Made by a program: the position numbers and the translations under genes. A model generated the notes under the pieces. The model saw nothing but the letters and a program-made list of their open reading frames with translations, ran no database searches and was not told where the DNA came from. This document shows, one piece after another, positions 5,598-31,384 of a stretch of 39,412 bases of DNA; positions within the stretch are counted from its first letter, which is position 1, and the number at the start of each line of letters is the position of its first letter. Source of the DNA: a virus; IMG/VR virus record IMGVR_UViG_3300038313_000213, positions 1-39,412 of that record. The stretch is one strand, 5' to 3'.

Positions 5598-5734
5598 CGT
5601 ATAAGGATATTAGGTGTATGGGGCAATTTCTCAATGATCGAACGTGTGACTTGTGTAAATATAGCAATTTGCGGGGGGATTGTGGGGTTTATGTGTCTTG
5701 CTCTCCTTCGTTATGTCAATCTAAAATTAAATGA
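5594..5734 (+). CDS. Cys-rich microprotein (46 aa)
   Basis: ATGA-coupled to the nrdD stop; CxxC and further Cys; fills the nrdD-nrdG gap. Confidence 0.45.
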   Translation: MTYKDIRCMGQFLNDRTCDLCKYSNLRGDCGVYVSCSPSLCQSKIK

Positions 5735-5749
5735 AATGGTGGGTGAACC

Positions 5750-6478: not shown

Positions 6479-6735
6479 ACAGAAAAACTTGGTTATTGGG
6501 GTATATGCTACCGTGGACATTTGTACTTTCTGTTCACATAATTATTGTATATATCGCGTGCAGTTATTCCGAAACGTTTAGAATTGCGTTCTCCGAGATA
6601 TTTCTAAATAAAATAGCAATATCAGAACTGATATTCATTTAAAAAGAAAGACGCGGATAAGCCAGCATACGAATTTAAGCGAATTCAAAAAATATACATT
6701 CCATTTGTAAAAATCATATACGGGGGACAAACACA

Positions 6736-6984
6736 ATGATAAAAGTATTTTCAACAACATCATGCTCGAAATGCAACCGATTGAAAACGTTTCTTGAGAA
6801 CAATGGAATTGCGTTTGATCGTGTAAATATGGATACCGCCGAAGGACTTACGGAACTATTCGCGCTTGGAATTGTCACATTCAATGCTCCGGTGCTTGTG
6901 TGTGGCAATAACGCGCTTTACAGCAGTGATTTGTTTAAAGGAACTGAAATTCAGGAGGAAAAGATTTTAAGCTTCATTGCTTAA
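6736..6984 (+). CDS. nrdH: Glutaredoxin-like NrdH-type redoxin
   Basis: CSKC active site, cis-Pro motif (APVL), 82 aa, next to nrdDG. Confidence 0.8.
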   Translation: MIKVFSTTSCSKCNRLKTFLENNGIAFDRVNMDTAEGLTELFALGIVTFNAPVLVCGNNALYSSDLFKGTEIQEEKILSFIA

Positions 6985-9763: not shown

Positions 9764-12337
9764 TCATCTTGTTTTTGATTTCCGTTTTGTAGTTCGTTTT
9801 CTAGGTGCTTTTCTTTTTGTAGTTGTTTTTCTCTTCTGTGAGACAGTTTCGCCAAAGAAACTATCCATGTTTCCGAGAACGTTGTGTATAGTGCGTTTCA
9901 TTCTATACATGTCGCGTTCGTTTTCAAGTGTTTCTTCGTTCTTCTTTTTCTTCGATGTTTTTATAATCGGGTTCCGTTCGTTTACCCGGATGATCGGTTC
10001 ATTTCCTCCTGCTTTTGATTCTTTCGGATTCACAACGCGCGTACTTCTTCCTATCGTTGGTTTACTCACATTCGGCTTGCTCGTTGTTTCCATGCTCTTG
10101 CTATTCGTTCCTTTACTGGTTGTGCTCTTACTGGTTGTGCTCTTACTGGTTGTGCTCTTACTTGATGCGCTCTTACTTGATGTGCTCTTGCTCGGTGATG
10201 CCCTGCTCGCGCTCTTACTGCCATAAGACGGCTTGCTGAACGTCCCTTTACTTCCACCTTCAGCAATCTTACTACTTTCCATTTTACTTACTTCATTAAC
10301 AATCAATTCCTTCGATGCACTTGGCACGTAAGCCGTCTTAGACCGCTCAGAAATGCCCCTCGAGATTGCCTTAGACACATTAACCTTATCTGACGAGAAT
10401 ATCAGTTCAAGGTCTTTTGCGGTGCTTGCTCCACGAACCACAGTATTCATTTTCGCAGAATCAATACTACCCGTCATTTTTACGATTTCAGCTTTTCCTG
10501 GCAACTTGCCATTTTCCACTATATATTTAACTATAGGAGATTCCAGTATTGAAGGGTTCTTTTGAGCTCCGATTTTAGCATATGCAATTATATCGTCTGC
10601 AATTCCAAGTTTACCGGTCACTTCATACGCCGTGCCTATTTCTATCAAGTCCCTAACGTCCTTTACACGGCCACCGTGCATGAGCTCAATCTTTCCGTCT
10701 TTAAGTGTTGTGCCACCTGCAAACTTCCTGGCGGCCTGCTCCTGCAGCTTCATCATTTTTACTTTACCGGCTTTTATGGATTTTTTGCCTTTGAACCCGT
10801 AAGCAATACCAGATTCCGACCTATAACCAACACCAACTTCGTTTTCAATTGAAACTTTCGATTGCTTGTTTTTCGAGAAAACCTCAACTCCCTTTTCCCA
10901 TACACCATTCATTTTAAATTCGATTTTCGGCGCGCTTGCTTCTCCGGTTATCTGATAATCAATGCCTTCTTTGTATCCTGCCTTATTCGCGTTCTTCCTG
11001 AAATTCGAAACGAATTTATTTGTATTGCTTACAGACAATTCAATGTCTTTCGGGGATCTGGTAAAGAATCCTTTCATTTGCAATTTTTGGGGTACGGATC
11101 CATAAACCTGTATATCCCCTGTTTTCAGCAACCCACTATAACCGGTTATTGTGTCCTTTACAACACCTTTCATATTTTGTGGTATATGCTCGCTCAGGAT
11201 ATCAAGCGATTTCGGCTTTGTAATTGCCTTACGCTGTTTATACGCGGTTTCAGCAATTGTTTTTCCAGACTTAAAATATGTCTGTTCTGTCGGGTTCATT
11301 TGCTTCATTGTCTCTTCAAATGCCCGTGTGTCAGATTTCCGGAATGCCTGTACCTGCTTGCCTTCGATTGCTTCTTTAGACGCTCCAACTGCACCACGTT
11401 TTATTTTACCGGTTTCCTTCGAATATGATATCAAAGGTCTTTCTTTTACATTCAAAGAATACCCCAGTTTAATGTCCCGTACTGCAGCCGCTTCTCCCGG
11501 TGTAACCTCTTGCAATTTCACGGACTTAACTTTAACCGGTGATGATTTAACCCCAGCTTTCGCAACACGTCCAAGCCCCTCCATTGCAACTAGACTTGTT
11601 ACAAACCGCACTGGATCAGTTTCAAATGACTGAACGACCATACCAGCACCTACCGGTATAGACGGCGCAATTATTCGCGGAGACTGTGCGTACCTTTCCG
11701 CTCCATATGCAATGTGTCCGGCAGCGTTCCCGATGTCCGTAACATCGTACAGCCCCTTCACAACTGACCCGACGACTGGTATATTTTCCGTCGCTTGAGT
11801 TGCTTCAACTGCATATGTTTTCTTTTTCAACCACGTTGAAAGGTCTTTTCCGGAATGATTAATTTCTTTAGCAATGTTCGAGTGCTTGAACTCCTTGGTA
11901 GTGCTAAATCTTTCAACTGCTTCCTTTTGTTTATTTGTAAGTTCTCTTCCTGCAGCAATTGACTTTCCAGCACCGTATAGGTTTTTAGCGTAAGAAGCAA
12001 GGCTTTGTTTATTGTTTTTGGTATTGCCAAAATTCTTTACCTGACTTATAATGCTCCGTGGTTGTCCCACGCTTGCACCCGTAGCAGCAATAGTTACGTT
12101 GCCTGCAGAATCACGCGAAAAGAAATTAGTAGTCTGTCTTTTCGCTTCTTCAATCTTCCTGCTTTGCTCTACTGCAGCAGCGCGTTTCGCTTCCTGCTCC
12201 CTTGCGTATCTGGACCCTGTAGATCCACCTACTATATCTCCTCTTGCGTCCCTGGAAGCTGTGTGTTTCGCGGCGTATCCACTAGCGGCATCAGATACAC
12301 TTACGTGAGTTTTCCCGCTACCATCGACATACGCCAT
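9764..12337 (-). CDS. 857-aa basic protein with a central AbiEii/MenT-like nucleotidyltransferase domain and S/T/K-rich tail; last gene of the structural operon
   Basis: VYGS...RSPKDIE, KGVEVF, EQAARKF and RVKDVRDL motifs; K/R-rich C terminus; coupled to 12342..12584. CDS is certain, domain call is inference. Confidence 0.7.
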   Translation of the reverse strand: MAYVDGSGKTHVSVSDAASGYAAKHTASRDARGDIVGGSTGSRYAREQEAKRAAAVEQSRKIEEAKRQTTNFFSRDSAGNVTIAATGASVGQPRSIISQVKNFGNTKNNKQSLASYAKNLYGAGKSIAAGRELTNKQKEAVERFSTTKEFKHSNIAKEINHSGKDLSTWLKKKTYAVEATQATENIPVVGSVVKGLYDVTDIGNAAGHIAYGAERYAQSPRIIAPSIPVGAGMVVQSFETDPVRFVTSLVAMEGLGRVAKAGVKSSPVKVKSVKLQEVTPGEAAAVRDIKLGYSLNVKERPLISYSKETGKIKRGAVGASKEAIEGKQVQAFRKSDTRAFEETMKQMNPTEQTYFKSGKTIAETAYKQRKAITKPKSLDILSEHIPQNMKGVVKDTITGYSGLLKTGDIQVYGSVPQKLQMKGFFTRSPKDIELSVSNTNKFVSNFRKNANKAGYKEGIDYQITGEASAPKIEFKMNGVWEKGVEVFSKNKQSKVSIENEVGVGYRSESGIAYGFKGKKSIKAGKVKMMKLQEQAARKFAGGTTLKDGKIELMHGGRVKDVRDLIEIGTAYEVTGKLGIADDIIAYAKIGAQKNPSILESPIVKYIVENGKLPGKAEIVKMTGSIDSAKMNTVVRGASTAKDLELIFSSDKVNVSKAISRGISERSKTAYVPSASKELIVNEVSKMESSKIAEGGSKGTFSKPSYGSKSASRASPSKSTSSKSASSKSTTSKSTTSKSTTSKGTNSKSMETTSKPNVSKPTIGRSTRVVNPKESKAGGNEPIIRVNERNPIIKTSKKKKNEETLENERDMYRMKRTIHNVLGNMDSFFGETVSQKRKTTTKRKAPRKRTTKRKSKTR
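10113..10187. repeat. Five tandem 15-bp repeats encoding KS(T/A)(T/S)S pentapeptides
   Basis: TTACTGGTTGTGCTC x3, TTACTTGATGCGCTC, TTACTTGATGTGCTC. Confidence 0.9.
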
Positions 12338-12341
12338 ACTC

Positions 12342-12584
12342 TCACCTTTTCGATACGCTTATTCTTGCCGACGGTGCGTTTTCTTTTATGAGTTTTACGG
12401 CTTTTGCTTTAGTTGCGGCATCCTTCGCGGAATATTTCAGTGAACCAGTGAAACCATATCCACTGCCTCGCTTTGTAATTGCCCCAAGTGTAGCATTGCT
12501 GACCTTTATTCTTTTCTTTGCAATTACAGCGTCCCGTTTTGTTGCTAACGGGCCATAGTTAAACCTTACGGTAATCAGATACAT
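12342..12584 (-). CDS. Small very basic protein, possible virion DNA-binding protein
   Basis: 80 aa, K/R-rich, GGAGG RBS, own TATA-like box near 12630. Confidence 0.7.
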   Translation of the reverse strand: MYLITVRFNYGPLATKRDAVIAKKRIKVSNATLGAITKRGSGYGFTGSLKYSAKDAATKAKAVKLIKENAPSARISVSKR

Positions 12585-12677
12585 TTTCTATAACCTCCAA
12601 AAAACGTTTATACTATAATAATATTAGGCAGTTAAACTATAAAAAAGTAACTTCGTACAAAAAATAAAAAGAAGAAG

Positions 12678-13286
12678 TTAGAACTGGCCTAAAGCCATTT
12701 CAACATCTTCGGTAAAGTCTGGTTCGTCGTCGTCTTTCGTAAAGAACGTGTTTTCTCTCTGCGCCATTATCGGGAAAAACATGTACAGCAGCGATGTAAT
12801 CCACGCGGGGAACATCAACACGTAATAAAATATCTTTACATAGAACGACCGGTCGCTTGACGCGTCCCACGTTTCGCCCACGTTCGTCAAGGTCGTAGCG
12901 TCCAACGCTCCGGTTATCGCATCCATGGCTATTCCATACCCGTTTACTAGGAATATCGAAAACACTGTCCCGATCACCATCATGAACAGATATTCGAAAT
13001 ACGTCTGTGCTGGAATCATTGTCCCCTTCGACCGCTCAAACAGGTATATTATCAGCCCAATTACAACGAAAAACGGAAACGCCTTCCATATACCAAGCGT
13101 CATTTCATAAGTGTCTTTCGTGTCCACCGTAACCATGTCGTCATTTATCATATCGTTAAAAATTTGTATGGGGGTATTGAACGACGCGGAAAACACAATG
13201 TATATTAACCCGAATACAAAAATTGAAGCACCGAGTACGAGTATAGACATCGACCCGGCGCGCTCATCATGTATTAAATTCTTCAT
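12678..13286 (-). CDS. Four-TM virion protein with class III (pilin-like) signal peptide; possible tandem spindle-capsid fold
   Basis: DERAG-SMSILVL N terminus; two hydrophobic helix pairs, each ending in a FP-type motif. Confidence 0.65.
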   Translation of the reverse strand: MKNLIHDERAGSMSILVLGASIFVFGLIYIVFSASFNTPIQIFNDMINDDMVTVDTKDTYEMTLGIWKAFPFFVVIGLIIYLFERSKGTMIPAQTYFEYLFMMVIGTVFSIFLVNGYGIAMDAITGALDATTLTNVGETWDASSDRSFYVKIFYYVLMFPAWITSLLYMFFPIMAQRENTFFTKDDDEPDFTEDVEMALGQF

Positions 13287-13301
13287 ATGTTTACCACTCC
13301 C

Positions 13302-13937
13302 TTAATATCTGTCCCTTCCTAGCATATATAAATTCACTGCAAATGATAATATTATCATCAATATTATAAACGTTTTATACTGTTCCGGAATGAACCCGAT
13401 AACGATGCACCCGATGGTCATCGACACTACCACTGGAATTGTCATGGATTCCTGTCTCTTCCACATCAGCCCAAACGGTAGCAGGAAGAGAATAAGATAT
13501 ATGGATTTGCCCATCAAATTTTCGAATGGCGACACGCTGTTTCCGAGTAACCCTTGCCAATCACCATTTTCTATATTCTCCGTCAGATTTTCAAACTCCT
13601 CTTCCGCAAACTGCCCAACTGTCGTATTTGCAAGCACTCTCGGGACAGTCCCACGCATAAATAATGTTGAACTGTTCCCCGTGGGACTTTCGACAAATAC
13701 CGATACATTGAAATATTCGCCCCCCCCCGGCATAGTGTACGTGTAATAACTATTCGAAGTCGTGCTTTCTACCCCGTCTAAAAAGAAGTGGGCCGTAGTA
13801 AACGCATCGTCCGATGTAAACGAGAAATTGCACGACTGTTCAGCTAATATAGTTCTGTCATTTGCTGTAAGTGTTGGAGCTCCTTGCGCAATTCCAACGA
13901 AACACAGCAAAGCAATTATACAAATTATTTTTTTCAT
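13302..13937 (-). CDS. Secreted, membrane-anchored virion glycoprotein
   Basis: Start reassigned to ATG 13937 (MKKIICIIALLCFVGIAQG signal peptide); N-glycosylation sequons; three C-terminal hydrophobic segments. Confidence 0.75.
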   Translation of the reverse strand: MKKIICIIALLCFVGIAQGAPTLTANDRTILAEQSCNFSFTSDDAFTTAHFFLDGVESTTSNSYYTYTMPGGGEYFNVSVFVESPTGNSSTLFMRGTVPRVLANTTVGQFAEEEFENLTENIENGDWQGLLGNSVSPFENLMGKSIYLILFLLPFGLMWKRQESMTIPVVVSMTIGCIVIGFIPEQYKTFIILMIILSFAVNLYMLGRDRY

Positions 13938-14320
13938 CAGTCCATCCCCTTTGTGCTTCTGCCGGACATGAATTGTATTACTCCCCATATCACTGTAAGG
14001 TTTGCAATTACCTGGATCGCCAGCGCAAAGCTTTCGTTTACTCCAATGTCGGTTAAGTAATTGTAAGGTATTACAAGCACGCCTAGTACGGTTGTAAATA
14101 GTCCAATCGTCTTGAATACCATTGACCAACCATCGAAATCGCTTTGCAAGTCGTCCTCGGCAAGTGTGCCGTCAATTTCAGTTACACCACTTGAAAACTC
14201 ACTGTCGATCTCTTCAATCTCATAAACTTGAATGGGGTTAAATATCCCCGCCTCGTTAATAACCGCACCTGCCAGAGCAAACGCAATTACAAAGAATGCC
14301 AGCTTTTGTGCATTCATCAA
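13937..14320 (-). CDS. Two-TM virion membrane protein
   Basis: Hydrophobic N- and C-terminal segments with an acidic linker; coupled to both neighbours. Confidence 0.75.
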   Translation of the reverse strand: MMNAQKLAFFVIAFALAGAVINEAGIFNPIQVYEIEEIDSEFSSGVTEIDGTLAEDDLQSDFDGWSMVFKTIGLFTTVLGVLVIPYNYLTDIGVNESFALAIQVIANLTVIWGVIQFMSGRSTKGMD

Positions 14321-16716
14321 ATCCCCCCTTCATCTCGCTTCTTATTTATCATGCTCAACACCGCATATACAGTCGCCAGACCCAACCCAACGCCAATCAC
14401 CACGTTTGTAGCATCTCCCATGCTCTCGAATATGTCAAGGTAATAGAACCACCACCCAAGCCCACATATCAGGACCGCGCCCATATGTGCGTCTGCTTTT
14501 CCCCATTGCATTGCAACAACAAAGAAAATCAATACCACAAGCGCAACCATCATATTACCGGTAAATGGTAATGCACTACCAGGGAAATTTATACCATAAT
14601 GCTTTTCAACATCTCCGAAACTGTCATGGTCAATTACCGCTTTTATTATGTAATCCTCGCCGACATAATCCTGCACAGTGAATACATAAGTCATATTTCC
14701 TGCGCCAACTGAGCTAGTTTCCATCACATTCAATGTATTATTATTTGAGTATGTTTGCCCAAGCTCAAAGTATACCGAATTAGTTCCGGTTCCGGTGTCA
14801 TTGTACGTCGCTGTAATTGTCGCATGTGACGAGTTTACCTCACTTTTCACTATCGTTATGTTGCAGATCTCATAAAACTGCGAGTCTGGCAATAACGAAG
14901 TCCCTGTCGCGTCTAAGACGATGAAATAACTGTTTTCAGTCGGGAATATATAATCTGTCTGGTTTATACTTCCATATACTGTATTTATAGCGTATCTTAT
15001 ATTTTCCATCATTTGGAAGCCACATGCCCCATCTGTACCGGTTGTCTGCATTGTAGTGGTTACGTTAGTCCCTGAAATTGTCACATTCGCGCCGTAATAA
15101 CGCTCGAATAAATATTTATCAGTGACAATAAACCGGACATAATGCGGAGAGTAATAAATACCCGAACCATCCGAAGCAATCGGGTCCAGGTAAATGTCCT
15201 TCCGACTTGTCAACGACGGCGACGTGGTGAACGAATAACTATCTGATTTTGTATATCCAGATCTGGCCGCCGACACTGTGTAAGTTTCATTTACAGCAAT
15301 TCCGGACGTATAATAATAATATCCGTTTTCATCTGTCGACAGTGTACCGCTCGTCGTGTCGTTTGCAATTGTCACGACTGCACCATGAATGCCGTCATTT
15401 GTTGATAAATCGCGCACATACCCATAAACACCAGGTTTAGTTAGATCCGGCGTGAAACTAAATATGTGAATCGTGTAATTACTCCAATCTGTAATATTGT
15501 AATCATACGTCATACCGTCCGTCGTCCCGATGCTTGATCCATCAAGCGACACACTGTAATAATTTGATAGACTCGAAAACGTAACCGGTGTTGCATTCAC
15601 ATATTCATTGCCATACAATGATGATATTGTCGCCGTAAACGCATACGGTGTATTAACAAGTGAGTAACTGACATTATACAACCCTCCTCCTGTATCAGTC
15701 ATTATGTACGCAGGTGTACCCGCGTATTTTAAACCACCGTTCATCCCTCCATCGTATATATTCATATTAACGTTTGAAATTGCAGTAAACAGCGCATCTG
15801 GATACTCTATTGGGTCAGTTGATAGTGAATACACAAATATATCATAGTCAAGTTGTGTACTATCCATGTTTAGTTCAACCATGTAAAGCCCATAGTTTTC
15901 ACCGAGAAGTGTTGGGATGCTCCATGTAATGAAATTGGCATAAGTCGAATTTGATAACGTAGTCGTGTTTATTATCCCAGCGTTTGCTGCAGTGAGAGAC
16001 ACCAAGCTTATGGTGTAATCATGATCTGGATGCTGTGCAAGACCCTGTATTCGATACGAACATTCCAACGTTGATTGGAATTCATTCCAAGATGGGTTGA
16101 TGCCTACACATGATTCTGTGCTAATGTCATCTATTATTACATAACATGTAGTCGAGGATAGCCCGGTATTGCCTCTGAAGCCAAACTGTAATTTATATTG
16201 CTCATTGCTGCTGTACAGCGCGTTATTTATTGGTCCTAATGATACCCCATCCTGATATAAGTATACGTCTTCTCCTACTGATACAATCTCAAACACGGTT
16301 TGCCCGATGCTAGTACCTGAATGTGTAAATTCTTTTGTTGCCACTATGTTACCCGCACCATCTACAAGCGACATTGCAAAGGATAGGGTTACCCTGTTAG
16401 CGTACCTGTTGCGAACATTGAAACTTACATAATTCTCATATACAAAGTCGTTCGTTGTGAGTGATTTTATACCGTATTCCTTATCTAATCGGGCATATGC
16501 CCGTAATGAGTGAGATGATGGATAGGCGGTTGGATATTGAATTACACTTATCACCCATTCTGAAGACCCTGAAGCTGTCCAGTAATCAGTATAAACACCA
16601 TTCGGGTATTTTTCTACAGTATCTTTAAACTCGGGAATTGCCAGCGCAGGTGACACAAGACAAACCACACTAATCATCACAGCTAGCATACAAGCTAGTA
16701 TAGAAACATTCTTCAT
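14317..16716 (-). CDS. 799-aa adhesin/receptor-binding protein (functionally analogous to SSV1 VP4/C792)
   Basis: Signal peptide, S/T/Y/N-rich beta domains, carboxypeptidase-regulatory-like repeat (GYVRD...GAVVTI...TDENGYY...YTVSAARSGY), many N-x-S/T, C-terminal TMs. Confidence 0.8.
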   Translation of the reverse strand: MKNVSILACMLAVMISVVCLVSPALAIPEFKDTVEKYPNGVYTDYWTASGSSEWVISVIQYPTAYPSSHSLRAYARLDKEYGIKSLTTNDFVYENYVSFNVRNRYANRVTLSFAMSLVDGAGNIVATKEFTHSGTSIGQTVFEIVSVGEDVYLYQDGVSLGPINNALYSSNEQYKLQFGFRGNTGLSSTTCYVIIDDISTESCVGINPSWNEFQSTLECSYRIQGLAQHPDHDYTISLVSLTAANAGIINTTTLSNSTYANFITWSIPTLLGENYGLYMVELNMDSTQLDYDIFVYSLSTDPIEYPDALFTAISNVNMNIYDGGMNGGLKYAGTPAYIMTDTGGGLYNVSYSLVNTPYAFTATISSLYGNEYVNATPVTFSSLSNYYSVSLDGSSIGTTDGMTYDYNITDWSNYTIHIFSFTPDLTKPGVYGYVRDLSTNDGIHGAVVTIANDTTSGTLSTDENGYYYYTSGIAVNETYTVSAARSGYTKSDSYSFTTSPSLTSRKDIYLDPIASDGSGIYYSPHYVRFIVTDKYLFERYYGANVTISGTNVTTTMQTTGTDGACGFQMMENIRYAINTVYGSINQTDYIFPTENSYFIVLDATGTSLLPDSQFYEICNITIVKSEVNSSHATITATYNDTGTGTNSVYFELGQTYSNNNTLNVMETSSVGAGNMTYVFTVQDYVGEDYIIKAVIDHDSFGDVEKHYGINFPGSALPFTGNMMVALVVLIFFVVAMQWGKADAHMGAVLICGLGWWFYYLDIFESMGDATNVVIGVGLGLATVYAVLSMINKKRDEGGI

Positions 16717-16717
16717 T

Positions 16718-16858
16718 CTAAAGCCTCCTGAACATCAGCCCATCTTTACACTCAGACCAAATTACTTCGGTCCCTTCCTTGATCTTGTGCTTCCTGATTA
16801 AACTCTTTGGAATTGTCACGAGAAACGTTCCGTTACCGTTTGTAAAAACTTTTCCCAA
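16718..16858 (-). CDS. AbrB/MazE/SpoVT-family regulator (46 aa, TTG start); not in the ORF track
   Basis: GKVFTNGNGTFLVTIPKSLIRKHKIKEGTEVIWSECKDGLMFRRL; GGGGTGA RBS. Confidence 0.75.
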   Translation of the reverse strand: MGKVFTNGNGTFLVTIPKSLIRKHKIKEGTEVIWSECKDGLMFRRL

Positions 16859-17063
16859 AAAATCACCCCATGTAATTATATGAAATGTCAATATCACTAT
16901 GTATATTGTTTTCTGAGGATAAATAATTATCTACAGTTGAAAAGAATTTACCGCACATCGTCAGAAAAACAGAATAAAAAGAGTATAATCAAGAAATTAA
17001 CGATTAAAATTTGTTCACACCGTTAACTTCTAAAATTCTTCAAATCGCCTTTTAGATAAATAG

Positions 17064-17990
17064 TTAATAACTCGCGTCACCTGTCCGTTTCCTCTTCGAT
17101 GATTTGGGCAAAGGCAAGTTTGATTGTTCTGCGTGCTTCCGATACGTTTTTGGGTCCAACTCGAACATCGCACATGCTTCTTTCTGTGTATACCCAAGCG
17201 CGATTTGTTCAGCTACGGCAAACACTTTGTCTGAAATCTGCTTGCTCTGTGAAGTTCCCCCCCCTTTCCCTTTACTTTCCTCATCTGCGTTTTCGTATTC
17301 CTCTATTGATCTCTGCCTCATTTCCTCTTCAATGTCATGCCTTCTTTTTTCATATTCACTTCTTAACCATTCCGGCGCGAGCCCGAAATACGTGTAATTG
17401 TAAACGACGCCCTTGTGCCGCACGTATGGGAATATATTTTTCCCGTCATCTTTGTTATACATCTTTCTGACAGTGGACAGTCTACCAAGTGTTATACCTC
17501 TACTGAACCATTTCTGAGCCATGACGATCTTATAATGAAGCAAGTTCCTGGCGATTTTATCCACAAATCCCCTATCCGGCACAGTCATAATTAATAAATT
17601 TTCCTTTGTTCTGAATGTCTGCAGGATCTTAGTCATGACTTCGTTGATATCACTCTGCCAGTTCCTTGCGCTTAACCCCTCTGCTCCAACGTCGTCCAGT
17701 ATGTAAATACCATGCTGTTTTATGCCCTTCGCTATTCTCATTACCTCGTCGCCTGTAAGTATTGCAATATTTTCAATGGTGAAGTAATCTTCCGGCTTAC
17801 CCCCGAGTCTTTCAGCCATAAGCAGAGAAGTACTATGAGACAGATCTAAAGCCGCGTTGCTCTTTCCATCCCCCGTCTTTCCCTCAATTATCATCATGAC
17901 GTGCTGATTGTGGCCGGAGCATATCTTATCACATATCACCTCTGCAAGTGACAATACCCTAGTATCTTTATCAGATTTCAGAGAATGCAT
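17064..17990 (-). CDS. P-loop ATPase with C-terminal HTH (morphogenesis/egress ATPase candidate)
   Basis: Walker A GKTGDGKS, Walker B YILDD, HTH-like LGYTQKEACAMFELDPKTY. Confidence 0.85.
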   Translation of the reverse strand: MHSLKSDKDTRVLSLAEVICDKICSGHNQHVMMIIEGKTGDGKSNAALDLSHSTSLLMAERLGGKPEDYFTIENIAILTGDEVMRIAKGIKQHGIYILDDVGAEGLSARNWQSDINEVMTKILQTFRTKENLLIMTVPDRGFVDKIARNLLHYKIVMAQKWFSRGITLGRLSTVRKMYNKDDGKNIFPYVRHKGVVYNYTYFGLAPEWLRSEYEKRRHDIEEEMRQRSIEEYENADEESKGKGGGTSQSKQISDKVFAVAEQIALGYTQKEACAMFELDPKTYRKHAEQSNLPLPKSSKRKRTGDASY

Positions 17991-18477
17991 TTTCTATTTC
18001 CTCCGACACGTTCTCTTTTCTTTTCGGCTTTCCATCTGCACCATAGAACTTTTCTTCAAGCTCTTTCTTCTTGTCTGCTGGCAACATCGGCATTACATAT
18101 TGTCTTTCGACAATTGCCAGGAAGTCATCACATAGCGTCATGACTTCACCGATTATATCAGTGTTGACATCAAGAACCAAATCGTTGTATTCATCAACGT
18201 CGATGTTTCCGTTATTCTTTTGTTTTTTGAGCTCTGTAATTGCACTAGCCCGCATCTCTTTAAGTCTCACACGTTCGTCTGGATTCGGGATAAAGTTGAT
18301 AATCAATTTAGCCAGGAATTCAACTTTCTTTTGTATATACTCGGGTGCAATTTCCGAGCTCCCGCATACATCAGCGCATTTGTAAAAGGTTTGAAAAAGT
18401 AAATTAGTATACTGAACCTTTGGCGCGACCTTTGCCGCAGGTGTCTGTAAATTAAACGTTGAATCTTCGTCGCCCAT
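17971..18477 (-). CDS. Hypothetical protein
   Basis: 168-aa ORF, GAGGTGA RBS, in operon. Confidence 0.75.
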   Translation of the reverse strand: MGDEDSTFNLQTPAAKVAPKVQYTNLLFQTFYKCADVCGSSEIAPEYIQKKVEFLAKLIINFIPNPDERVRLKEMRASAITELKKQKNNGNIDVDEYNDLVLDVNTDIIGEVMTLCDDFLAIVERQYVMPMLPADKKKELEEKFYGADGKPKRKENVSEEIENAFSEI

Positions 18478-18486
18478 GCCGTCACC

Positions 18487-18831
18487 TCACAATATTCTTT
18501 CACTCACAAGATCTTTCGATAGGTCTTCGTACAACTCGATAGCTTCCCAGCACATCGGAACTAAATTTTTTGAATTGCTTTTGCTCTTCCTTTTCTTCCA
18601 AATATCTATTTTCTTTATTATACGCTTCTCACGCATACCCTTTTCAAGCCGTACCAAATAATACAGCGCGATTAAACACCCTCTGAATTTCGAATACGTG
18701 TCTCTTAAGCTGTCATACTCCCTGTAATTCATTTCCAATATCATTTTAGTACACAGTTCGCACAATGTCAAATTTATATCAACGGCTTCGGTGATCTGAG
18801 GGGTTTTTGGGGGAGTTACAATATCTCCCAT
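18487..18831 (-). CDS. Hypothetical protein
   Basis: 114-aa ORF, coupled in operon. Confidence 0.7.
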   Translation of the reverse strand: MGDIVTPPKTPQITEAVDINLTLCELCTKMILEMNYREYDSLRDTYSKFRGCLIALYYLVRLEKGMREKRIIKKIDIWKKRKSKSNSKNLVPMCWEAIELYEDLSKDLVSERIL

Positions 18832-18832
18832 T

Positions 18833-19201
18833 TTAACCGCCCTTGTTCATGACCATGTAATACACAAGCGGGACCATTAAAATTATGAGCCCGACAACGA
18901 CTTTCATCCAATGCTTATCCATCCAGTCAACCTGTTCTTTCTTGTCTCCTATCTCCTGCAGAGTCAAAACATTTTGAACCATGTTACCAGTTGCCCCGAC
19001 TGTACACAATTCCGCAGCTTCAGTGAGGTAAAGAGGTTCGCATTTTATCGGTGTGCAATCAATTTCTTTCCGGAAAGCGATGATCTCTTCCATCAATCTT
19101 TTAGCAGCGAATTCAATTTCATCCTCATTGACTTCGCGAACAACGGGAATTTTATTCTTCTGTCTCGTCCTCATCCTCTTCTTCCTCCTCGTCTTCCTCA
19201 A
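18833..19201 (-). CDS. C-terminally anchored membrane protein
   Basis: C-terminal TM (VVVGLIILMVPLVYY); true start probably downstream of 19201. Confidence 0.65.
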   Translation of the reverse strand: MRKTRRKKRMRTRQKNKIPVVREVNEDEIEFAAKRLMEEIIAFRKEIDCTPIKCEPLYLTEAAELCTVGATGNMVQNVLTLQEIGDKKEQVDWMDKHWMKVVVGLIILMVPLVYYMVMNKGG

Positions 19202-19799
19202 GTTCCTCTTCGTCTTCTAATTCTTCCTCTTCCTCTTCTTCCTCGGGTTCTGTCATAAGACTGATCGGTATTTCATCGCCAAACTTGAGATTGCTTTCAA
19301 TTACAGTTTTGCAGTCTTCGAATAATGTTTCTGTCCCGTTAAACAGCAACGCAAGAATGGTTATTTCACTCGGTATCCAATTTAACATTGGGTTTGCTCG
19401 TATTTTTTTAGCAGTCTGTACAAGTGCCGCGCTCTCCGTAAATCCAAACGGGAAGAAGTGCGGCAACAGATAATAGAGCATTTCAGACCCGAATAATTTT
19501 GACCTGGCAGACGGTTTCGCAAGGTCAGGATTCACAAGCGTATAGTTATTGTGATTCAGCAGCCCCTTGTTTTTCGGGTTCTGCTCGCATATGAAAGGAG
19601 CCTGTTTCCCTGCCCGATCCACGATAACGCCAATTGGACGATTACCAGCTTCTTCTAATATCATTGACAATCTCGCATATTTTTTTAATCTGTCAAGTTT
19701 CATGTAAAGATAAATTGCGACTACAGAGCTTACTATAGTCACCCCGAACAGCGCAATATCAATCCACGAAAACGCTGTGCTGGTTGGAACGATTGCCAT
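19152..19799 (-). CDS. N-terminally anchored membrane protein with poly-acidic tail
   Basis: TM at about aa 10-32; E/D-rich C terminus. Confidence 0.75.
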   Translation of the reverse strand: MAIVPTSTAFSWIDIALFGVTIVSSVVAIYLYMKLDRLKKYARLSMILEEAGNRPIGVIVDRAGKQAPFICEQNPKNKGLLNHNNYTLVNPDLAKPSARSKLFGSEMLYYLLPHFFPFGFTESAALVQTAKKIRANPMLNWIPSEITILALLFNGTETLFEDCKTVIESNLKFGDEIPISLMTEPEEEEEEEELEDEEELEEDEEEEEDEDETEE

Positions 19800-19964
19800 T
19801 TAATTGCCCCCGATACTCCGCTCCAACGTGCCCACCATTCTGCCAAGTACTTCAAGAATCATCATCAGTACTGCGATTATGACAAACAGATGATCATTAC
19901 ACACAAACGCTGCAAGCATCGACATAAACGCTGCAAGAAATATAAGTTTACTAAGTGAATTCAT
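19800..19964 (-). CDS. Small two-TM protein (54 aa), paralogue of 19983..20144
   Basis: MNSLSKLIFLAAF...DHLFVIIAVLMMILEVL; GGAGG RBS; not in the track. Confidence 0.6.
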   Translation of the reverse strand: MNSLSKLIFLAAFMSMLAAFVCNDHLFVIIAVLMMILEVLGRMVGTLERSIGGN

Positions 19965-19982
19965 TTTATTTCCCTCCAAACT

Positions 19983-20144
19983 TTAAGAATCCCCGTATAT
20001 CACACGGTCTCTACACTCGGTCAACGTCTCTGCAATTACCAGAAGTACCGCAATTACAGTATACACCGGATCACCAAGCGAAACGAACTCGTATAAACTC
20101 AGTAGTCCAGCAATTAACAACACCACTCGAACAAACTTACCCAC
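19983..20144 (-). CDS. Small two-TM protein (53 aa, GTG start)
   Basis: GKFVRVVLLIAGLL...DPVYTVIAVLLVIAETL; GGAGG RBS; not in the track. Confidence 0.6.
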   Translation of the reverse strand: MGKFVRVVLLIAGLLSLYEFVSLGDPVYTVIAVLLVIAETLTECRDRVIYGDS

Positions 20145-20145
20145 G

Positions 20146-20742
20146 TTATTTCCCTCCGAATTTCAGAAATCCCCATCTCGATCTTTGTTCTTTTACACTC
20201 GCCTGCGCCGGTCTAAGAATCTCCTGTTGCGTCACGCTTCGGGTGCCAATTTCATTATTGATCAGTCTTTCTCTCTTATCTCCGTAAGTCCTGCTAATAT
20301 AAGCAGTGTAAACATCCAGAATATATTTATTCATCCCGGCAATATCGCATACCAATAGGTCGAATTTCGACGCATTGCAGCACAGCGCAAGTTCAATGTT
20401 ACGTTGCGCGAATACCTCTCTCTTCGACAACCGATCTTCTTTCGAGAACCTACCAGTGACACGTGGATTATTATTTGCAAGCACCTGCTCCTCTGTAAAT
20501 AGCGTATAAATACAGTGATACAGCGCGCTTTTGTACCTTGCCGTGAGTGGCAATTCCCTAACGTAATTAATCACATCTTCCCTGTACGGACTTCTCTTAA
20601 GCGTATTCGCGTACTTTAAACTTTCATCCGAGAAAGACGGTCTTTCAAGACTTGACGCGCCCAACCCAGCATAATCCGGTTCTTCGTCATAGTCATATTG
20701 CCCTGATCCATCGTCCTCTTCGTAATTGTCGTCCAACGTCAT
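20146..20742 (-). CDS. Hypothetical protein with acidic N terminus
   Basis: Start reassigned to ATG 20742 (AGGAGG RBS; overlaps the stop of the AbrB paralogue). Confidence 0.75.
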   Translation of the reverse strand: MTLDDNYEEDDGSGQYDYDEEPDYAGLGASSLERPSFSDESLKYANTLKRSPYREDVINYVRELPLTARYKSALYHCIYTLFTEEQVLANNNPRVTGRFSKEDRLSKREVFAQRNIELALCCNASKFDLLVCDIAGMNKYILDVYTAYISRTYGDKRERLINNEIGTRSVTQQEILRPAQASVKEQRSRWGFLKFGGK

Positions 20743-20876
20743 AACCTCCTTAATACCAAGCCTTGCGGCGACTCCTCCCAAATTACCTTAGTGTCTTGAT
20801 AGTATCCGTGTTTATCCGCTAAGTCCTTTGGAATTGTCACCGTCCGGCTTCCGTTCCCATTTTCGTGTACATGCAC
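20739..20876 (-). CDS. AbrB/MazE/SpoVT-family regulator (45 aa, GTG start), paralogue of 16718..16858
   Basis: HVHENGNGSRTVTIPKDLADKHGYYQDTKVIWEESPQGLVLRRL. Confidence 0.75.
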   Translation of the reverse strand: MHVHENGNGSRTVTIPKDLADKHGYYQDTKVIWEESPQGLVLRRL

Positions 20877-21060
20877 GCTCGCTCCCTCGGTTTTTATCAC
20901 ATATTATCGCGTTTAATCGTAATTTATCGTATATTTTATTGAGTAAGTTAATCCGCTTATGAAAACAATTCTAAAAAACACTTTTAATTTTATTTTTTTT
21001 TAAACTGATATAATAGGTAATCTTTATATACATCCTAAACGTATTAAAAGATAGAAGTGA

Positions 21061-21092
21061 GGAGGGGGTTGCCCCCCGAAGTCAAAAAAGAG
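21061..21092 (-). terminator. Terminator-like T-run plus GC hairpin after the capsid gene
   Basis: Minus strand: TAA-CTCTTTTTT-GACTTC-GGGGGG-CAA-CCCCCTCC. Confidence 0.55.
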
Positions 21093-21362
21093 TTATTCCT
21101 GCTTCTTGAGTTTGAACAGGGCTCCAATTGCAACACCAATAAAGACCACAATGATAACGACCTTCATAAGAGTTGCGCCGGATGTCCACACTTCAGCACC
21201 GGTAGGCGCGGTTGCAAAATCACCGGATGCGTTAATTGGTAAAGCAGTTGATACCTCTTCACCCATCCCAGGTGCCAAATAGAAGATCACGACTACAATA
21301 AGAAGTCCAACAGCGAGTCCTATCACTTTCTGCATATCATCTTCCTGTACCATAAAAACCAC
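21093..21362 (-). CDS. Putative major capsid protein of a spindle-shaped virus (SSV1 VP1/His1-like two-helix hairpin)
   Basis: Two long hydrophobic helices, NAS sequon in the turn, basic C terminus (FKLKKQE), own promoter and terminator. Confidence 0.75.
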   Translation of the reverse strand: MVFMVQEDDMQKVIGLAVGLLIVVVIFYLAPGMGEEVSTALPINASGDFATAPTGAEVWTSGATLMKVVIIVVFIGVAIGALFKLKKQE

Positions 21363-21467
21363 TACTCCTTTTATTATTTTCTTTTACAAGTTAGCTAATC
21401 CGTTTTCGTTTGTTCAGTACCATAGCTAACTGGAGGTTTATTCCTAATACTATATTGGTTTTCTTAG

Positions 21468-21488
21468 TATTTAATACTATCGACTTCC
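21468..21488 (-). promoter_or_regulatory. Archaeal TATA/BRE-like promoter of the capsid gene
   Basis: Minus strand GGAAGTCGATAG-TATTAAATA, about 110 nt upstream of the capsid start. Confidence 0.5.
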
Positions 21489-21534
21489 TACAAAAATTTT
21501 CTTTAAAATGTCAAAAAAGAAAAAAGGAAAATTA

Positions 21535-21792
21535 CTAATTGCGCCTGCCTTTCTGTCTCAAAAACATTAGTGCAAAAATCACTAATACAACACCGAGAAT
21601 CATTGCAACCGGCGACATTAAGCTTAACGTCGCGTTCTGGACTCGCACATTTGATTCGTGCGTTTCCTCGTATCCCGTACCGGTTACATTTATCTGGTCG
21701 TCGTTTTCTGACAATATCCCCGATGTATACCCCATGAAAATTGACATAACCGCTATCAGGGCAATTATAGGAATTATCTGTTTCGTGCTCAT
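21535..21792 (-). CDS. Putative minor capsid protein (SSV1 VP3-like paralogue)
   Basis: Two hydrophobic helices, NVT/NAT sequons, NATLSLMSP..ILGVVLVIF, basic tail. Confidence 0.65.
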   Translation of the reverse strand: MSTKQIIPIIALIAVMSIFMGYTSGILSENDDQINVTGTGYEETHESNVRVQNATLSLMSPVAMILGVVLVIFALMFLRQKGRRN

Positions 21793-22043
21793 TTTTGTTT
21801 CTCCGACTTTTCAAAATTCTTTTTCATTCTATCGTTCCAAAGCAAAGTAAGATTTTCCTCAAGTTCGCCAGGACATGCCATTTTATACACATTATAACTG
21901 TCGTAGCAATACCAACCAATGTAAAGTGCCGCAACCAGAACGCAGCAAAACTGCAACATCGGCGGAATGCTTGACATTTTTGCTGCAATTACAGAGAATA
22001 TACAGAGCAAGAACGTCCAAGACTTCCAATTTAAAGTTATCAA
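21789..22043 (-). CDS. Small two-TM membrane protein
   Basis: Hydrophobic N-terminal half; ATGA overlaps. Confidence 0.7.
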   Translation of the reverse strand: MITLNWKSWTFLLCIFSVIAAKMSSIPPMLQFCCVLVAALYIGWYCYDSYNVYKMACPGELEENLTLLWNDRMKKNFEKSEKQK

Positions 22044-22390
22044 TCTAATGCCTCCTCAACTCTCGTTTCTTTGATAAATTGGTACACCTGCAGCAACGTA
22101 AGTACAACGAATACAATTGCGAGCAGTTCAAACACCCCACTCGCCGCACTGTTCCGTATTACCTCAGTATTTTTGACAATTTCAGATCCAACCACTAGAT
22201 TTTCTGTTTTCGTCAGTGTCCCGTCAATGAAAATGTCAGATATCTTGAAGGACAGTAACGCTGAAATTGCCATACTCACTACAGAACATACATTCACCGG
22301 CCCGATATACGTCAACAGCATCGAAACGACGAAAAACAACGCCATTAATGCTATCATGACGTACAGCAGCCATATTTCAGTTGTTAGCAT
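22040..22390 (-). CDS. Three-TM membrane protein
   Basis: Three hydrophobic segments; GGTGA RBS. Confidence 0.75.
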   Translation of the reverse strand: MLTTEIWLLYVMIALMALFFVVSMLLTYIGPVNVCSVVSMAISALLSFKISDIFIDGTLTKTENLVVGSEIVKNTEVIRNSAASGVFELLAIVFVVLTLLQVYQFIKETRVEEALD

Positions 22391-22474
22391 ATTTTATCAC
22401 CTGTTATTATATACGTTCTTAAAGTATTTAATTTAAACTGTATTCGAGTGCATTTTTTATACATAAAATTTTAT

Positions 22475-22798
22475 TTACCATTTTCCACCCCAGATAGTGT
22501 TTATTATCCAACATATATTGTTTATACACAACGCGAATCCAACAAGTGTCGGAATACCGACATAAACTCTAAACCATCCTTCTGTACTTCCTCTGTATAA
22601 AAAGTACAGAGCGACGAGTACAAGGCATTTGGACAGTATAAAAACAATCGTCTGACTTACAAGAAACTGCAACATTGGATTAGTCTCACATAATCCTGGC
22701 AATTGCAAAGCGTACAGCGTTGTAGCAACATCACCAATGATGAAAAATGCAATAACTGGCAAAACCTTCTTTATGAAATCCATTTCAAATTCCCCCAA
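22475..22798 (-). CDS. DUF5658-like membrane protein
   Basis: GDVATTLYAL...ETNP motif plus three TMs. Confidence 0.6.
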   Translation of the reverse strand: MGEFEMDFIKKVLPVIAFFIIGDVATTLYALQLPGLCETNPMLQFLVSQTIVFILSKCLVLVALYFLYRGSTEGWFRVYVGIPTLVGFALCINNICWIINTIWGGKW

Positions 22799-23388: not shown

Positions 23389-25002
23389 TTACGCGCACAT
23401 TCTAGGTATTGGGTAGTTTTTCCCTGGATATGAGACAACTATCAGGTTTTTCATAGTCCTTGTAATTGCAACATACCAAACATACGCTTCATTTGCCCGG
23501 CCCTCTGTCGTAAGAGTTCCCTGTTTTACAATCGGAGGGACTGCAGCATGTAAAAATACATGTGTTGCCTCAAGTCCTTTTGCGCCATGGATAGTAAGAA
23601 TCTGAATCCGGTTTATCCTGCTTTCGTCGATTGCCGCAACATTGTTCTTTAACATTCCATTGATTTTTAATTTCAGCATCGAATCTGCGCTAGTTAATCT
23701 CTCTCCGGGATTCCCGGCCCGAACTGCCTGAACAAATGAGTTCGATAAATACCAATTATTCAGCGCGTTTACATTCTGTATATTGTTTTCGAAGAATGTT
23801 TTTAGTTCTTCCTTTGTTCCAGAGTACTGCAGATCGGTCTTTTTTACATGGTCAACTAATTTTTTGTACTCGGTTACTGTTGGTGTCCTGCCTTCCCTTA
23901 TCTTTGCAATTGCATGGTAAAGTTGTATTTCGTCATGTGTCCAGCCACAAATACCACCGAAAGGAGTGCCAATTCCTGCGAGAATTGCAGCAATCGCAGC
24001 CCCTTGATAATTAGTCCTGACAAGGTGAAAAACCGTGTGGTCTGCGGTTGAGTAATTTTTGAAATCGTTTGTTAGATGGCGCAATAACTTTTTATTGTCG
24101 ATTGTAAGCAGTTTTCCAACTTCGTTTTTTGTCTTTATGTCTGGTGCCGCGTATTCGTTCCGCATTGTTACCATGTCTGAAGCAAGCTTCCATATATTGC
24201 CTGGCAACCTGTGGCTCTCTGGCAACACGACAAGCTCGCCATCGGTTCCCATCAGGTGTTTAGGACTTGCCCCGAGAAACGGGTATAATGTCTGAAGAGG
24301 ATCCCCAGCATAATACACGGTTTCCGCGTCGTCGCTCCACATCTTCGAGAGTTCGTACATTATCGGGGTCATGTCCTGTGCCTCATCGTACATTTGAACA
24401 GTACAGTCTGTCATAATCCCGTTTTCAAGTGTCAGGTTAAGCATATCTGACCAGTCGATTTTGCCTACCTCTTGCTTGTACTCTTCGTAATTGCTGAAGA
24501 ATTCTCGCATGTAATCCAATGGAATTATTTCTTTTCCACCGCATTGTTTCGCTCCTTCAGTCGGTGTAAGCAGGTTGTTTTTTGCGTAAGCGTAGTAGGA
24601 CAATAACTGAGCGGTTTTGTTTGTTTCTAACTCGGTTTTATCGAAATTGTCAGTTCCCAGCTTGCAGGTAAAAGCCCCGTACCCGTATTTTTTGTTAAAG
24701 TCCTTCATTTCGGCTGATCCCATTAGATACCCGTCTTCCTTTCGCACGTCTATTATTCCGGCACGCATAAGCAGAGAAAGACATTCTCCGTGAAAAGTTC
24801 TTACGTTCGGAAGCCGGTTTTCTGGAATCCCGCTTGCTGCAGAAACAATCTGTTTTGCGTCGCTTGCTGCTTCCTTCCGAAACTGTGTGAATAAAATATT
24901 TTCAGGAGGAACCCCAGCACTCAGCGCGTCCTTAAAGTCATTTGTCAATTTCCAAGTTTTACCGGTTCCTGGTGCTCCGTCATACTTTGTAATTGTCGCC
25001 AT
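23389..25002 (-). CDS. Superfamily 1 UvrD/Rep-like helicase
   Basis: GAPGTGKT, TFHG, DEAQD, GDPLQ, SHRLP, TIHGAKGLE, YVAITR. Confidence 0.95.
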   Translation of the reverse strand: MATITKYDGAPGTGKTWKLTNDFKDALSAGVPPENILFTQFRKEAASDAKQIVSAASGIPENRLPNVRTFHGECLSLLMRAGIIDVRKEDGYLMGSAEMKDFNKKYGYGAFTCKLGTDNFDKTELETNKTAQLLSYYAYAKNNLLTPTEGAKQCGGKEIIPLDYMREFFSNYEEYKQEVGKIDWSDMLNLTLENGIMTDCTVQMYDEAQDMTPIMYELSKMWSDDAETVYYAGDPLQTLYPFLGASPKHLMGTDGELVVLPESHRLPGNIWKLASDMVTMRNEYAAPDIKTKNEVGKLLTIDNKKLLRHLTNDFKNYSTADHTVFHLVRTNYQGAAIAAILAGIGTPFGGICGWTHDEIQLYHAIAKIREGRTPTVTEYKKLVDHVKKTDLQYSGTKEELKTFFENNIQNVNALNNWYLSNSFVQAVRAGNPGERLTSADSMLKLKINGMLKNNVAAIDESRINRIQILTIHGAKGLEATHVFLHAAVPPIVKQGTLTTEGRANEAYVWYVAITRTMKNLIVVSYPGKNYPIPRMCA

Positions 25003-29114: not shown

Positions 29115-29147
29115 ACACCCCAAAATAAATGTTTTTAGGGGGAAAGA

Positions 29148-31334: not shown

Positions 31335-31384
31335 TATTATCAGATAGTAAACTATAAATAGAAAGACAACCATATATAATTATT

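Follow-up and report, generated by a model that had tools for sequence, protein, structure and literature searches.

The IMG/VR record IMGVR_UViG_3300038313_000213, analysed here over its entire length of 39,412 bases (hereafter the window; GC content about 40% throughout), is probably the complete, circularly permuted double-stranded DNA (dsDNA) genome, of about 39.3 kb, of a temperate spindle-shaped virus that infects Methanosarcina or a close relative in the Methanosarcinaceae. A block of minus-strand genes at 9764-22798 reads, from its gene content and conservation, as a conserved module for virion building, and it carries two detectable hallmarks of the spindle-virus architecture: a solidly assigned B251-type ATPase and a VP1/VP21-type capsid protein, for which each match is weak and the ranking of the matches is specific. 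A protein resembling ORF13 of His1 accompanies them. The spindle morphology itself we infer by analogy with known spindle-shaped viruses. An earlier note on this DNA had proposed such an architecture and had taken 9764-22798 for a complete-looking genome; the architecture is borne out, and the genome corresponds to the whole window, the flagged span being its virion module only.

The capsid candidates are two small proteins encoded on the minus strand by the open reading frames (ORFs) 21093..21362 and 21535..21792. They are present as the earlier note had described them, each with two predicted transmembrane (TM) helices and a basic C-terminus, and with N-x-S/T sequons in the connecting loop (one in the first protein, two in the second). 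The candidate major capsid protein 1 (MCP1) probably starts at the ATG at 21353 rather than at 21362, because this start fits the database protein P0001 and the MADDMQK start of the homologues; MCP1 would then be a helical hairpin of 86 amino acids (aa) encoded at 21093..21353. An AAGGAG box (ribosome-binding site) precedes this ATG, an oligo-T run and a hairpin lie 3' of the gene, and the second hairpin-protein gene is likewise followed by an oligo-T run. With its own ribosome-binding site and these oligo-T runs, MCP1 looks like a separately expressed unit. Candidate capsid protein 2 (MCP2; 21535..21792, 85 aa) has 16% pairwise identity to MCP1, and alignment of the profiles of the two subfamilies gave a probability of 98.3% (E 2.5e-14, 83 columns), which identifies the two at the sequence level as diverged paralogues, like VP1 and VP3 of fuselloviruses. 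The capsid candidate led us to two related IMG/VR records, G001 and G002. MCP2 adjoins MCP1 in G001 and in the G077 provirus, an integrated relative described below, and lies about 2.7 kb from it in G002. Close homologues of MCP1 (72-91% identity) occur on metagenome contigs, and the family has 48 members at E<=1e-3 in a HMMER search of 1.84 billion representatives, several of them with N-terminal extensions resembling the SSV1 VP1 precursor.

An AlphaFold2 model of MCP1 is a hairpin with helices at residues 2-31 and 46-79 (pLDDT 88). Aligned by hhalign with SSV1 VP1/VP3 and His1 VP21, with or without the MCP of BLv25, the hairpin family reached a probability of 66-69% (E ~5e-5), in a collinear alignment of helix 1, a loop containing N-x-S/T and Trp, and helix 2. 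For specificity, the family profile was compared with all small ORFs (660 in hhalign, 714 in hmmsearch) of six archaeal viruses, namely His1, SSV1, BLv25, PAV1, LSV-48N and the pleolipovirus HRPV-1. Among the 660 ORFs, hhalign placed the BLv25 MCP first, His1 VP21 second, PAV1 ORF109 third and SSV1 VP1 fourth, and hmmsearch gave nearly the same order. The nearest Pfam-labelled clusters of the Atlas, which is based on a protein language model, were VP1_VP3 (0.85) and His1_capsid (0.83), and these serve as leads only. Together, these results are good evidence for placing the hairpins in the MCP family of spindle viruses, but they stop short of proof. Of the capsids that the earlier note had named for comparison, those of SSV1 and His1 are favoured by the rankings, every single match being weak; the SMV1 structure proved unspecific.

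The second hallmark lies at 17064..17990 on the minus strand, where a P-loop ATPase had been predicted and is present, with both Walker A and Walker B aligned. It is a 308-aa DnaA-like AAA+ ATPase of the B251 type, with a C-terminal tail resembling a helix-turn-helix and, according to the TM scan, no TM segment. The protein matches phrog_5484 ('DnaA-like replication initiation protein') over its full length (2e-10), and its only match in 50,697 phage and archaeal-virus records is CDS0023 of LSV-48N (28% identity, 1e-9). With SSV1 B251 it has 23% identity over about 200 aa (E 5e-4), in an alignment that spans Walker A, Walker B and the C-terminal EY..RR motif. A family hidden Markov model (HMM) made from the window protein and seven relatives matched LSV-48N (6e-23), SSV1 B251 (4e-9) and BLv25 ORF1 (5e-5), His1 ORF16 at only 0.12, and neither HRPV-1 VP8 nor PAV1; a pairwise BLAST of His1 ORF16 with the ATPase likewise gave no match. 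Sequence kinship with B251 is therefore solid, and the protein is a candidate morphogenesis or extrusion ATPase. An MCP, an end adhesin and a B251-like ATPase without TM domain form the morphogenetic module of spindle viruses (bioRxiv 10.1101/2021.07.29.453957); the window has both a B251-type ATPase lacking a TM segment and proteins with the MCP architecture of spindle viruses (about 80 aa, two hydrophobic helices, short loop).

The candidate for the receptor-binding adhesin of the pointed end is a 799-aa membrane-anchored glycoprotein (14317..16716, minus strand). The anchored protein of this length, noted earlier as an adhesin, is present, with a signal-like N-terminal helix, 17 sequons and C-terminal hydrophobic or TM helices; in addition, it has a CarboxypepD_reg domain (3.5e-7). 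In its AlphaFold2 model (pLDDT 65), which is all-beta, beta-sandwich domains follow one another and a helical anchor closes the C-terminus. Foldseek matches of this model were confined to Ig/FN3 ectodomains of a generic kind, adhesins of bacteria, SlaB (the stalk of the archaeal S-layer) and the tip of the lambda tail, with no spindle-virus tail protein among them. The homologues (P0083-P0094) are 75-78% identical in the C-terminal half, whereas the N-terminal half is unrelated or longer; the longest reach 1,220 aa and carry a DUF2341 domain. This swap of the N-terminal half looks like the modular exchange of a presumed receptor-binding head.

The last gene of the module (9764..12337, minus strand) encodes an 857-aa protein that lacks a TM segment, contains a region of repeats rich in Ser, Thr and Lys, and ends in a strongly basic tail at the C-terminus. 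The protein is conserved in G002, and in G001 conservation is limited to its ends; in the G126 provirus (contig 21, about 192-200 kb) its middle finds a 40%-identical match beside a capsid gene. Pfam, PHROGs, NCBIfam, the PDB and the Atlas returned no match for it, and a virion-internal or DNA-associated role is a guess. A reading as an AbiEii/MenT-like protein was unsupported in Pfam at E<=0.1, and a similarity to LSV-48N CDS0019 (30 aa, E 0.004-0.008) was left aside as overly short and hydrophobic.

Many small membrane proteins had been expected in the block, and 13 of its 21 ORFs indeed have at least one predicted TM segment. The absence of terminase, portal, tail and DNA polymerase genes was also upheld: scans of about 50 ORFs against Pfam, PHROGs and NCBIfam gave no match to these families or to HK97 capsid families. 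Three small membrane proteins of 84, 116 and 107 aa, predicted by the TM scan, open the module (21789..22798, minus strand). The 107-aa protein belongs to Pfam DUF5658 (7e-8) and has 31.5% identity over 92 aa with positions 4404-4676 of His1, which is ORF13 (tblastn, E 1e-5). Between these genes and the ATPase, eight minus-strand genes (17971..20900) encode proteins of 168, 114, 122, 215, 59, 53, 211 and 53 aa, a single TM segment being predicted in several of them; the genes are collinear and conserved in G001, G002 and the integrated G077 element, and their products had no family match in the Pfam, PHROGs and NCBIfam scans. Four further small minus-strand genes, characterised jointly by TM predictions and by conservation in G001 and G002 (12342..14320), encode a soluble protein of 80 aa (12342-12584), whose counterpart in Methanosarcina sp. 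UBA293 adjoins the capsid gene; a protein with four TM segments (12678-13286); a glycoprotein with signal peptide and three TM segments, probably at 13302-13937; and a 3-TM protein (13937-14320). Long Glu/Asp-rich tails were observed in the 215-aa module protein (19152-19250) and in a 127-aa protein outside the module (27981-28364, tail region 27981-28200), where they appear as the triplet-like repeats D1 and I17.

Integrated relatives point to the host. A capsid gene 77% identical to MCP1 in the window lies on a 108-kb contig of Methanosarcina sp. UBA293, in an island of about 9 kb (DALS01000060; locus L017, 5169-13423) between housekeeping genes, with aldehyde dehydrogenase on one side and genes for NAPRTase and a Cys/Met pyridoxal phosphate-dependent (PLP) enzyme on the other. 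The island has an integrase, a 527-aa winged helix-turn-helix protein, the capsid gene, the 80-aa gene, a small integrase and a 39%-identical ATPase, and it lacks the large adhesin gene; this content would fit either a reduced provirus or an element resembling a satellite. Of 177 Methanosarcinaceae genomes, 13 have ATPase homologues, which lie on contigs 175-411 kb long. The provirus on contig 33 of G077 (about 153.8-172.4 kb) has its genes in the same order as the window: a homologue of the 116-aa protein, MCP2, MCP1, four module genes, the ATPase, the C-terminal half of the adhesin and a homologue of the 211-aa protein, and at its end a homologue of the window's small integrase. Homologues of the integrase occur in 8 of the 177 genomes, in one of them adjoining the same virion module. 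The window's nrdD (3436-5576) has 66-71% DNA identity to the chromosomal nrdD in 175 of the 177 genomes, which points to capture of the viral gene from a Methanosarcinaceae host. Because of the integrated relatives, the nrdD similarity and a primase-like protein in common with Methanosarcinales tailed viruses, the available sequences support Methanosarcina or a close Methanosarcinaceae relative as the host and a temperate lineage, in line with the Methanosarcinales host first suggested. Homologues with match statistics to the window proteins identical to those of the UBA293 island were also seen on a 9-kb contig binned as 'Clostridia', and a 3-kb contig assigned to the bin 'Chlamydiales' has a capsid gene with 49% identity; these two are probably archaeal virus contigs placed in the wrong bins.

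At the ends of the window, bases 14..97 and 39329..39412 are identical over 84 nt (100% identity), and these two copies mark the closure of a circle. The terminal overlap reported in the earlier note is thus real, though not strictly terminal, with bases 1-13 differing. Because these bases break the overlap, IMG/VR labels the record linear. CheckV gives it a completeness of 66%. The relative G001 (61,329 bp) has a 99-nt direct terminal repeat and is rated 100% complete, and G002 (42,909 bp) is rated linear; nearly every window gene, including all major ones, has a homologue in both, with 40-98% protein identity. In the circular G001, a homologue of the gene at 37381-37695 is followed by a gap of about 1.5 kb, the integrase and then nrdD, which is the order across the joined ends of the window. 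Since the ends overlap and the gene order is continuous over the junction as in G001, we interpret the window as a complete circular molecule of about 39.3 kb, whose assembly, on the sequence at the junction, was broken at a polymorphic insertion sequence (IS). The likely cause of the break is a TnpB element of the IS200/605 type beside the junction (38132..39259, minus strand; Pfam Cas12f1-like_TNB 2e-22, OrfB_IS605 1e-9), for which G001 and G002 offer no close counterpart at the corresponding position. The contig might instead be a fragment of a virus of about 60 kb, or an excised provirus with the 84-nt repeats as attL and attR, as the linear label, the 66% rating, the 61-kb closest relative, the 13 bases that break the overlap and the position of the integrase, 170 nt from the left repeat, would allow. 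We consider this unlikely, because the 66% is a mere length ratio to G001 (39.4/61.3), the junction has the gene order of a circular relative, the right repeat ends exactly at the contig end with no host gene in the window, which would be rare for a provirus cut, and an IS/TnpB insertion, which often causes assemblies to break, sits at the break. The TnpB element begins exactly where the end overlap stops, and ~38095-38125 forms a GC-rich hairpin of the kind typical for right ends of IS605. Bases 1-13 resemble an IS-free allele, yet they gave a single exact match only (1-13) and none beyond the right end of the IS. No tRNA genes were found in the window or in the scanned provirus loci; an att site as such was not searched for.

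Other interpretations of the virion module itself must be weighed as well. Small membrane proteins, an anchored glycoprotein, an NTPase and the lack of a known icosahedral-type capsid also make up the general pleolipovirus layout, so that the virion could have another enveloped or pleomorphic morphotype, pleolipovirus-like or of a new shape, with the hairpins as envelope or matrix proteins and the 799-aa protein as a fusion spike. Unclassified pleolipovirus-related viruses of methanogens are mentioned in a summary by the ICTV, the international committee for virus taxonomy (PMC12451623), and the link of the MCP to VP1/VP21 is below conventional significance. Against this, VP3 of HRPV-1 fell outside the top 25 of the hairpin-profile ranking by hhalign, where spindle-virus MCPs took ranks 1, 2 and 4, and the ATPase HMM misses HRPV-1 VP8 and matches SSV1 B251, LSV-48N and BLv25. 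The window proteins had no tblastn match to HRPV-1, the sole pleolipovirus compared, and neither VP3, VP8 nor the VP4-type spike of the Pleolipoviridae (Trapavirae) was detected by sequence in that comparison, which speaks against the pleolipovirus matrix proteins named in the earlier note as an alternative for the capsid candidates; a pleomorphic virion is accordingly improbable. Two-helix hydrophobic proteins of similar size also act as conjugative pilins, and the structure search cannot separate pilins from hairpin capsid proteins. The window might then be an integrative plasmid or vesicle-borne element, with the hairpins as pilins (Ced/Ted- or VirB2-like) or membrane components and the glycoprotein as a cell-contact adhesin; integrase, helicase, primase-like gene and IS elements are all common on plasmids. 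However, no large ATPase of the VirB4/TraC/CedB class, no VirB6-like protein and no relaxase was matched among the approximately 50 ORFs, and the sole morphogenesis ATPase is the 308-aa B251 type, which is unmatched in 72,556 plasmid records and matches three spindle- or lemon-shaped viruses. The records are, moreover, filed as viral in IMG/VR, and we regard a plasmid as very improbable, more so than either of the preceding alternatives.

Several observations count against a complete spindle-virus genome, which we nevertheless prefer. The virus is known here from its genes, its particle being a predicted one. For the hairpins, each single match to a known MCP is weak, the hhalign probability stays below 70%, and Pfam VP1_VP3 (PF06281) and His1_capsid (PF25665) were not significant: among 51 family members, His1_capsid appeared in just 3, at E>=0.18, and direct Pfam and PHROG scans of the hairpin proteins gave noise-level TM families only. 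A tblastn search of the phage collection with MCP1 had no match even at E 10, a word-index search with a diverse alignment of the family found no Pfam-labelled match, and a PDB sequence search with both family profiles returned unrelated TM helices and no SSV19 or SMV1 chain. Structure searches (Foldseek against PDB and BFVD; VIA-align) do not discriminate helical hairpins; the SMV1 MCP (7ro2_A), for example, came at rank 50 (Z 6.0) amid hundreds of unrelated hairpins. For the adhesin and the 857-aa protein, no similarity could be detected to C792 of SSV1, VP27 of His1 or the large proteins of LSV-48N. The exact virus was not found integrated, only relatives that are 33-58% identical, the first 13 nt of the contig misfit a simple circle, and the genomes of the group (39-61 kb) exceed the five spindle-virus genomes compared (13-25 kb).

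Considering the above results, we propose a plausible course for the life cycle of a temperate spindle-shaped virus with this genome. By analogy with SSV1, His1 and wyrdviruses (bioRxiv 10.1101/2021.07.29.453957), the hairpin proteins would enter the host membrane, be N-glycosylated and enclose the circular DNA in a spindle-shaped shell, and the ATPase would drive assembly or extrusion at the membrane; ATPase-driven extrusion or budding has been proposed for spindle viruses (bioRxiv 10.1101/2021.07.29.453957). The 799-aa glycoprotein would sit at one pointed end as the end fibre, its exchangeable N-terminal half binding the host, a role suggested by relatives that keep the C-terminal half and swap the N-terminal one. 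Virions would leave by budding, without lysis, and the integrase would establish lysogeny. The primase-like protein and the helicase might replicate the DNA, whereas NrdDG with the redoxin, the thymidylate-synthase-like enzyme and MazG would shape the pool of deoxynucleoside triphosphates (dNTPs) and give the virus its own dNTP supply under anoxic conditions.

The integrase noticed earlier is present, outside the span 9764-22798, as a small tyrosine integrase of 221 aa (265..930, minus strand; Pfam Phage_integrase 8e-23), with 92% identity in G001 and 80% in G002. An anaerobic (class III) ribonucleotide reductase cassette assigned by Pfam occupies 3294..6984 on the plus strand and consists of NrdD (3294-5597; NRDD 1e-154), the radical-SAM activase NrdG (5750-6478; Radical_SAM 2e-21) and a glutaredoxin-like protein (6736-6984; Glutaredoxin 5e-6). 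A replication and nucleotide module on the plus strand (27751..37695), conserved in G001 and G002, has by Pfam a P-loop protein (29148-29918), a thymidylate-synthase-like protein (30259-30897), an IS607-type serine recombinase (31385-31972) with the TnpB of the same element (31974-33209), an HNH protein (33928-34398) and MazG (35819-36106). The richness in nucleotide-metabolism genes pointed out in the earlier note is therefore confirmed by Pfam for NrdD, NrdG, the redoxin, the thymidylate-synthase-like protein and MazG. The same module encodes a primase-like protein of 475 aa (34382-35809), which had no match in Pfam, PHROGs, NCBIfam or the PDB and is 29-33% identical over 90% of its length (E to 2e-54) to proteins of the Methanosarcinales tailed viruses BK063672 and BK063673; the BK063672 homologue is annotated as 'DNA primase'. 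This similarity suggests a replication gene common to different virus realms in one host order. A UvrD-like helicase for replication or repair (23389..25002, minus strand; UvrD-helicase 3e-22, UvrD_C 1e-11) is conserved in G001 and G002. Nested inverted repeats (25077-25106/25236-25265 and 25130-25153/25269-25292) occupy the gap between the helicase and the next gene (25077-25292), which is a candidate replication origin or regulatory region.

Three transposon-type units were observed in this 39-kb genome, namely the IS607 recombinase with its TnpB, a lone IS200-type TnpA (8691-9194; Pfam) and the lone TnpB beside the junction. The IS607 pair is 97-98% identical to a pair in G001 that lies at a different genomic place, which suggests recent mobility. 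A 12-bp motif, RCAATTWCARVG, is dispersed over the window at 29 sites on both strands, compared with 0.25 expected; the sites run from 502 to 37953 and include 3363-3374, 21985-21996 and 26274-26285. The motif occurs 25 times in G001, 7 times in G002 and 3 times in UBA293 locus L017 (counted over the whole locus). In the surroundings of the G126 and G132 proviruses, eight stretches of Methanosarcinaceae DNA have it 0-1 times per 20 kb, and it is absent from LSV-48N, His1 and SSV1. As to its function, one may guess at a regulatory box or at a site to which a viral DNA-binding protein or packaging protein attaches.

Among the methane producers of digesters, sediments and soils, Methanosarcina is a key one, with a very small number of known viruses. 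A temperate genome with integrated relatives in sequenced Methanosarcinaceae offers a route to an inducible, cultivable model, and the small integrase and the exchangeable adhesin head are candidate tools. The virus would also present a case of a chronic, budding-type virus with its own anaerobic dNTP supply and possibly DNA-modification genes. Its main points of interest are the genome size of the group, the load of nucleotide-metabolism genes, the IS/TnpB elements and the dispersed motif.

Spindle-shaped viruses of Methanosarcina were predicted in 2022 (PMC9796341), and the ICTV established the family Eurekaviridae for them in 2025 (PMC12451623). Methanosarcina spindle-shaped virus 1 (Hesperidvirus aureum, PQ167755), an ICTV species from anaerobic digesters, carries two copies of the MCP on a circular genome (PMC12451623). 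The window resembles the Eurekaviridae in its predicted Methanosarcina host, circular genome, two MCP copies and metagenome-only origin (PMC12451623; compared by description only), and it has all the descriptive traits of the family, that is, host, circular genome and two MCP copies. Set against PQ167755 by description, it may belong to the same species, to the same family or to a separate lineage. That the window, G001, G002 and the Methanosarcinaceae proviruses form a family-level spindle-virus lineage separate from the Eurekaviridae is a tentative suggestion, with the opposite somewhat easier to believe on a comparison with PQ167755 by description only. If it were true, these genomes (39-61 kb) would be among the largest of VP1/VP21-type spindle viruses and unusually self-sufficient, with an anaerobic ribonucleotide reductase and redoxin, a thymidylate-synthase-like base-modifying enzyme, MazG, TnpB-carrying IS elements and the 29-site 12-bp motif. 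The predicted Methanosarcina spindle virus C1697 (Ngo et al. 2022, PMC9796341) is alike in having an SSV1-like MCP and originates from anaerobic digestion microcosms; compared with it by description, the window is circular and carries a primase-like gene and a helicase.

Beyond the methanogens, the window, with its end overlap, its circular synteny and no match of any ORF to a polymerase family, differs from His1 (Halspiviridae), which is linear with a protein-primed family B polymerase. His1 and BLv25, a Halorubrum virus, have a single MCP gene, compared with two in the window, and genomes of 13-14 kb. On the other hand, His1 VP21 and BLv25 ORF2 are the top two matches of the hairpin profile, the MCPs of both viruses have in common with the hairpin family a pattern of helix, N-x-S/T, S-x-W ... 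W and helix, His1 ORF13 resembles the DUF5658 protein, and BLv25 ORF1 matches the ATPase profile. The only gene in common with the tailed viruses of Methanosarcinales (Caudoviricetes) is the primase-like gene, and among about 50 ORFs there was no VirB4/CedB-class ATPase or VirB6-like match as in conjugative or Ced/Ted systems. LSV-48N, a Haloferax virus (PP151251) whose lemon shape was shown by electron microscopy (PMC12714723), has a related ATPase, an integrase and two proteins longer than 800 aa on a circular genome; it differs in having no other clear gene match, a halophilic host, a GC content of 61% and a 25-kb genome.

A further comparison concerns SSV1 (Fuselloviridae). Only for the ATPase and, to a weak degree, for the MCP is homology detectable: when all window proteins were compared with SSV1 by tblastn, nothing credible emerged, B251 was found via HMM and BLASTP alone, and no part of the Fuselloviridae core gene set was recognised beyond MCP and ATPase. 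The genomes of the window group are 2.5-4x larger, the integrase of the window is small (221 aa), the host is a mesophilic methanogen, and the window carries NrdDG, a thymidylate-synthase-like enzyme, MazG and IS elements with tnpA or tnpB. In contrast, the overall design is alike: a circular dsDNA genome, a temperate life style, a tyrosine integrase, a B251-type ATPase, two adjacent paralogous two-helix proteins of about 80 aa with a loop sequon (capsid proteins in SSV1, capsid candidates in the window), and an end protein of about 790 aa (C792, compared with 799 aa in the window). The window virus most likely represents a further member of an established group and not a novel kind of virus, and it would add a mesophilic methanogen branch to the module of B251 ATPase and VP1-type capsid protein that unites spindle viruses across archaeal phyla.

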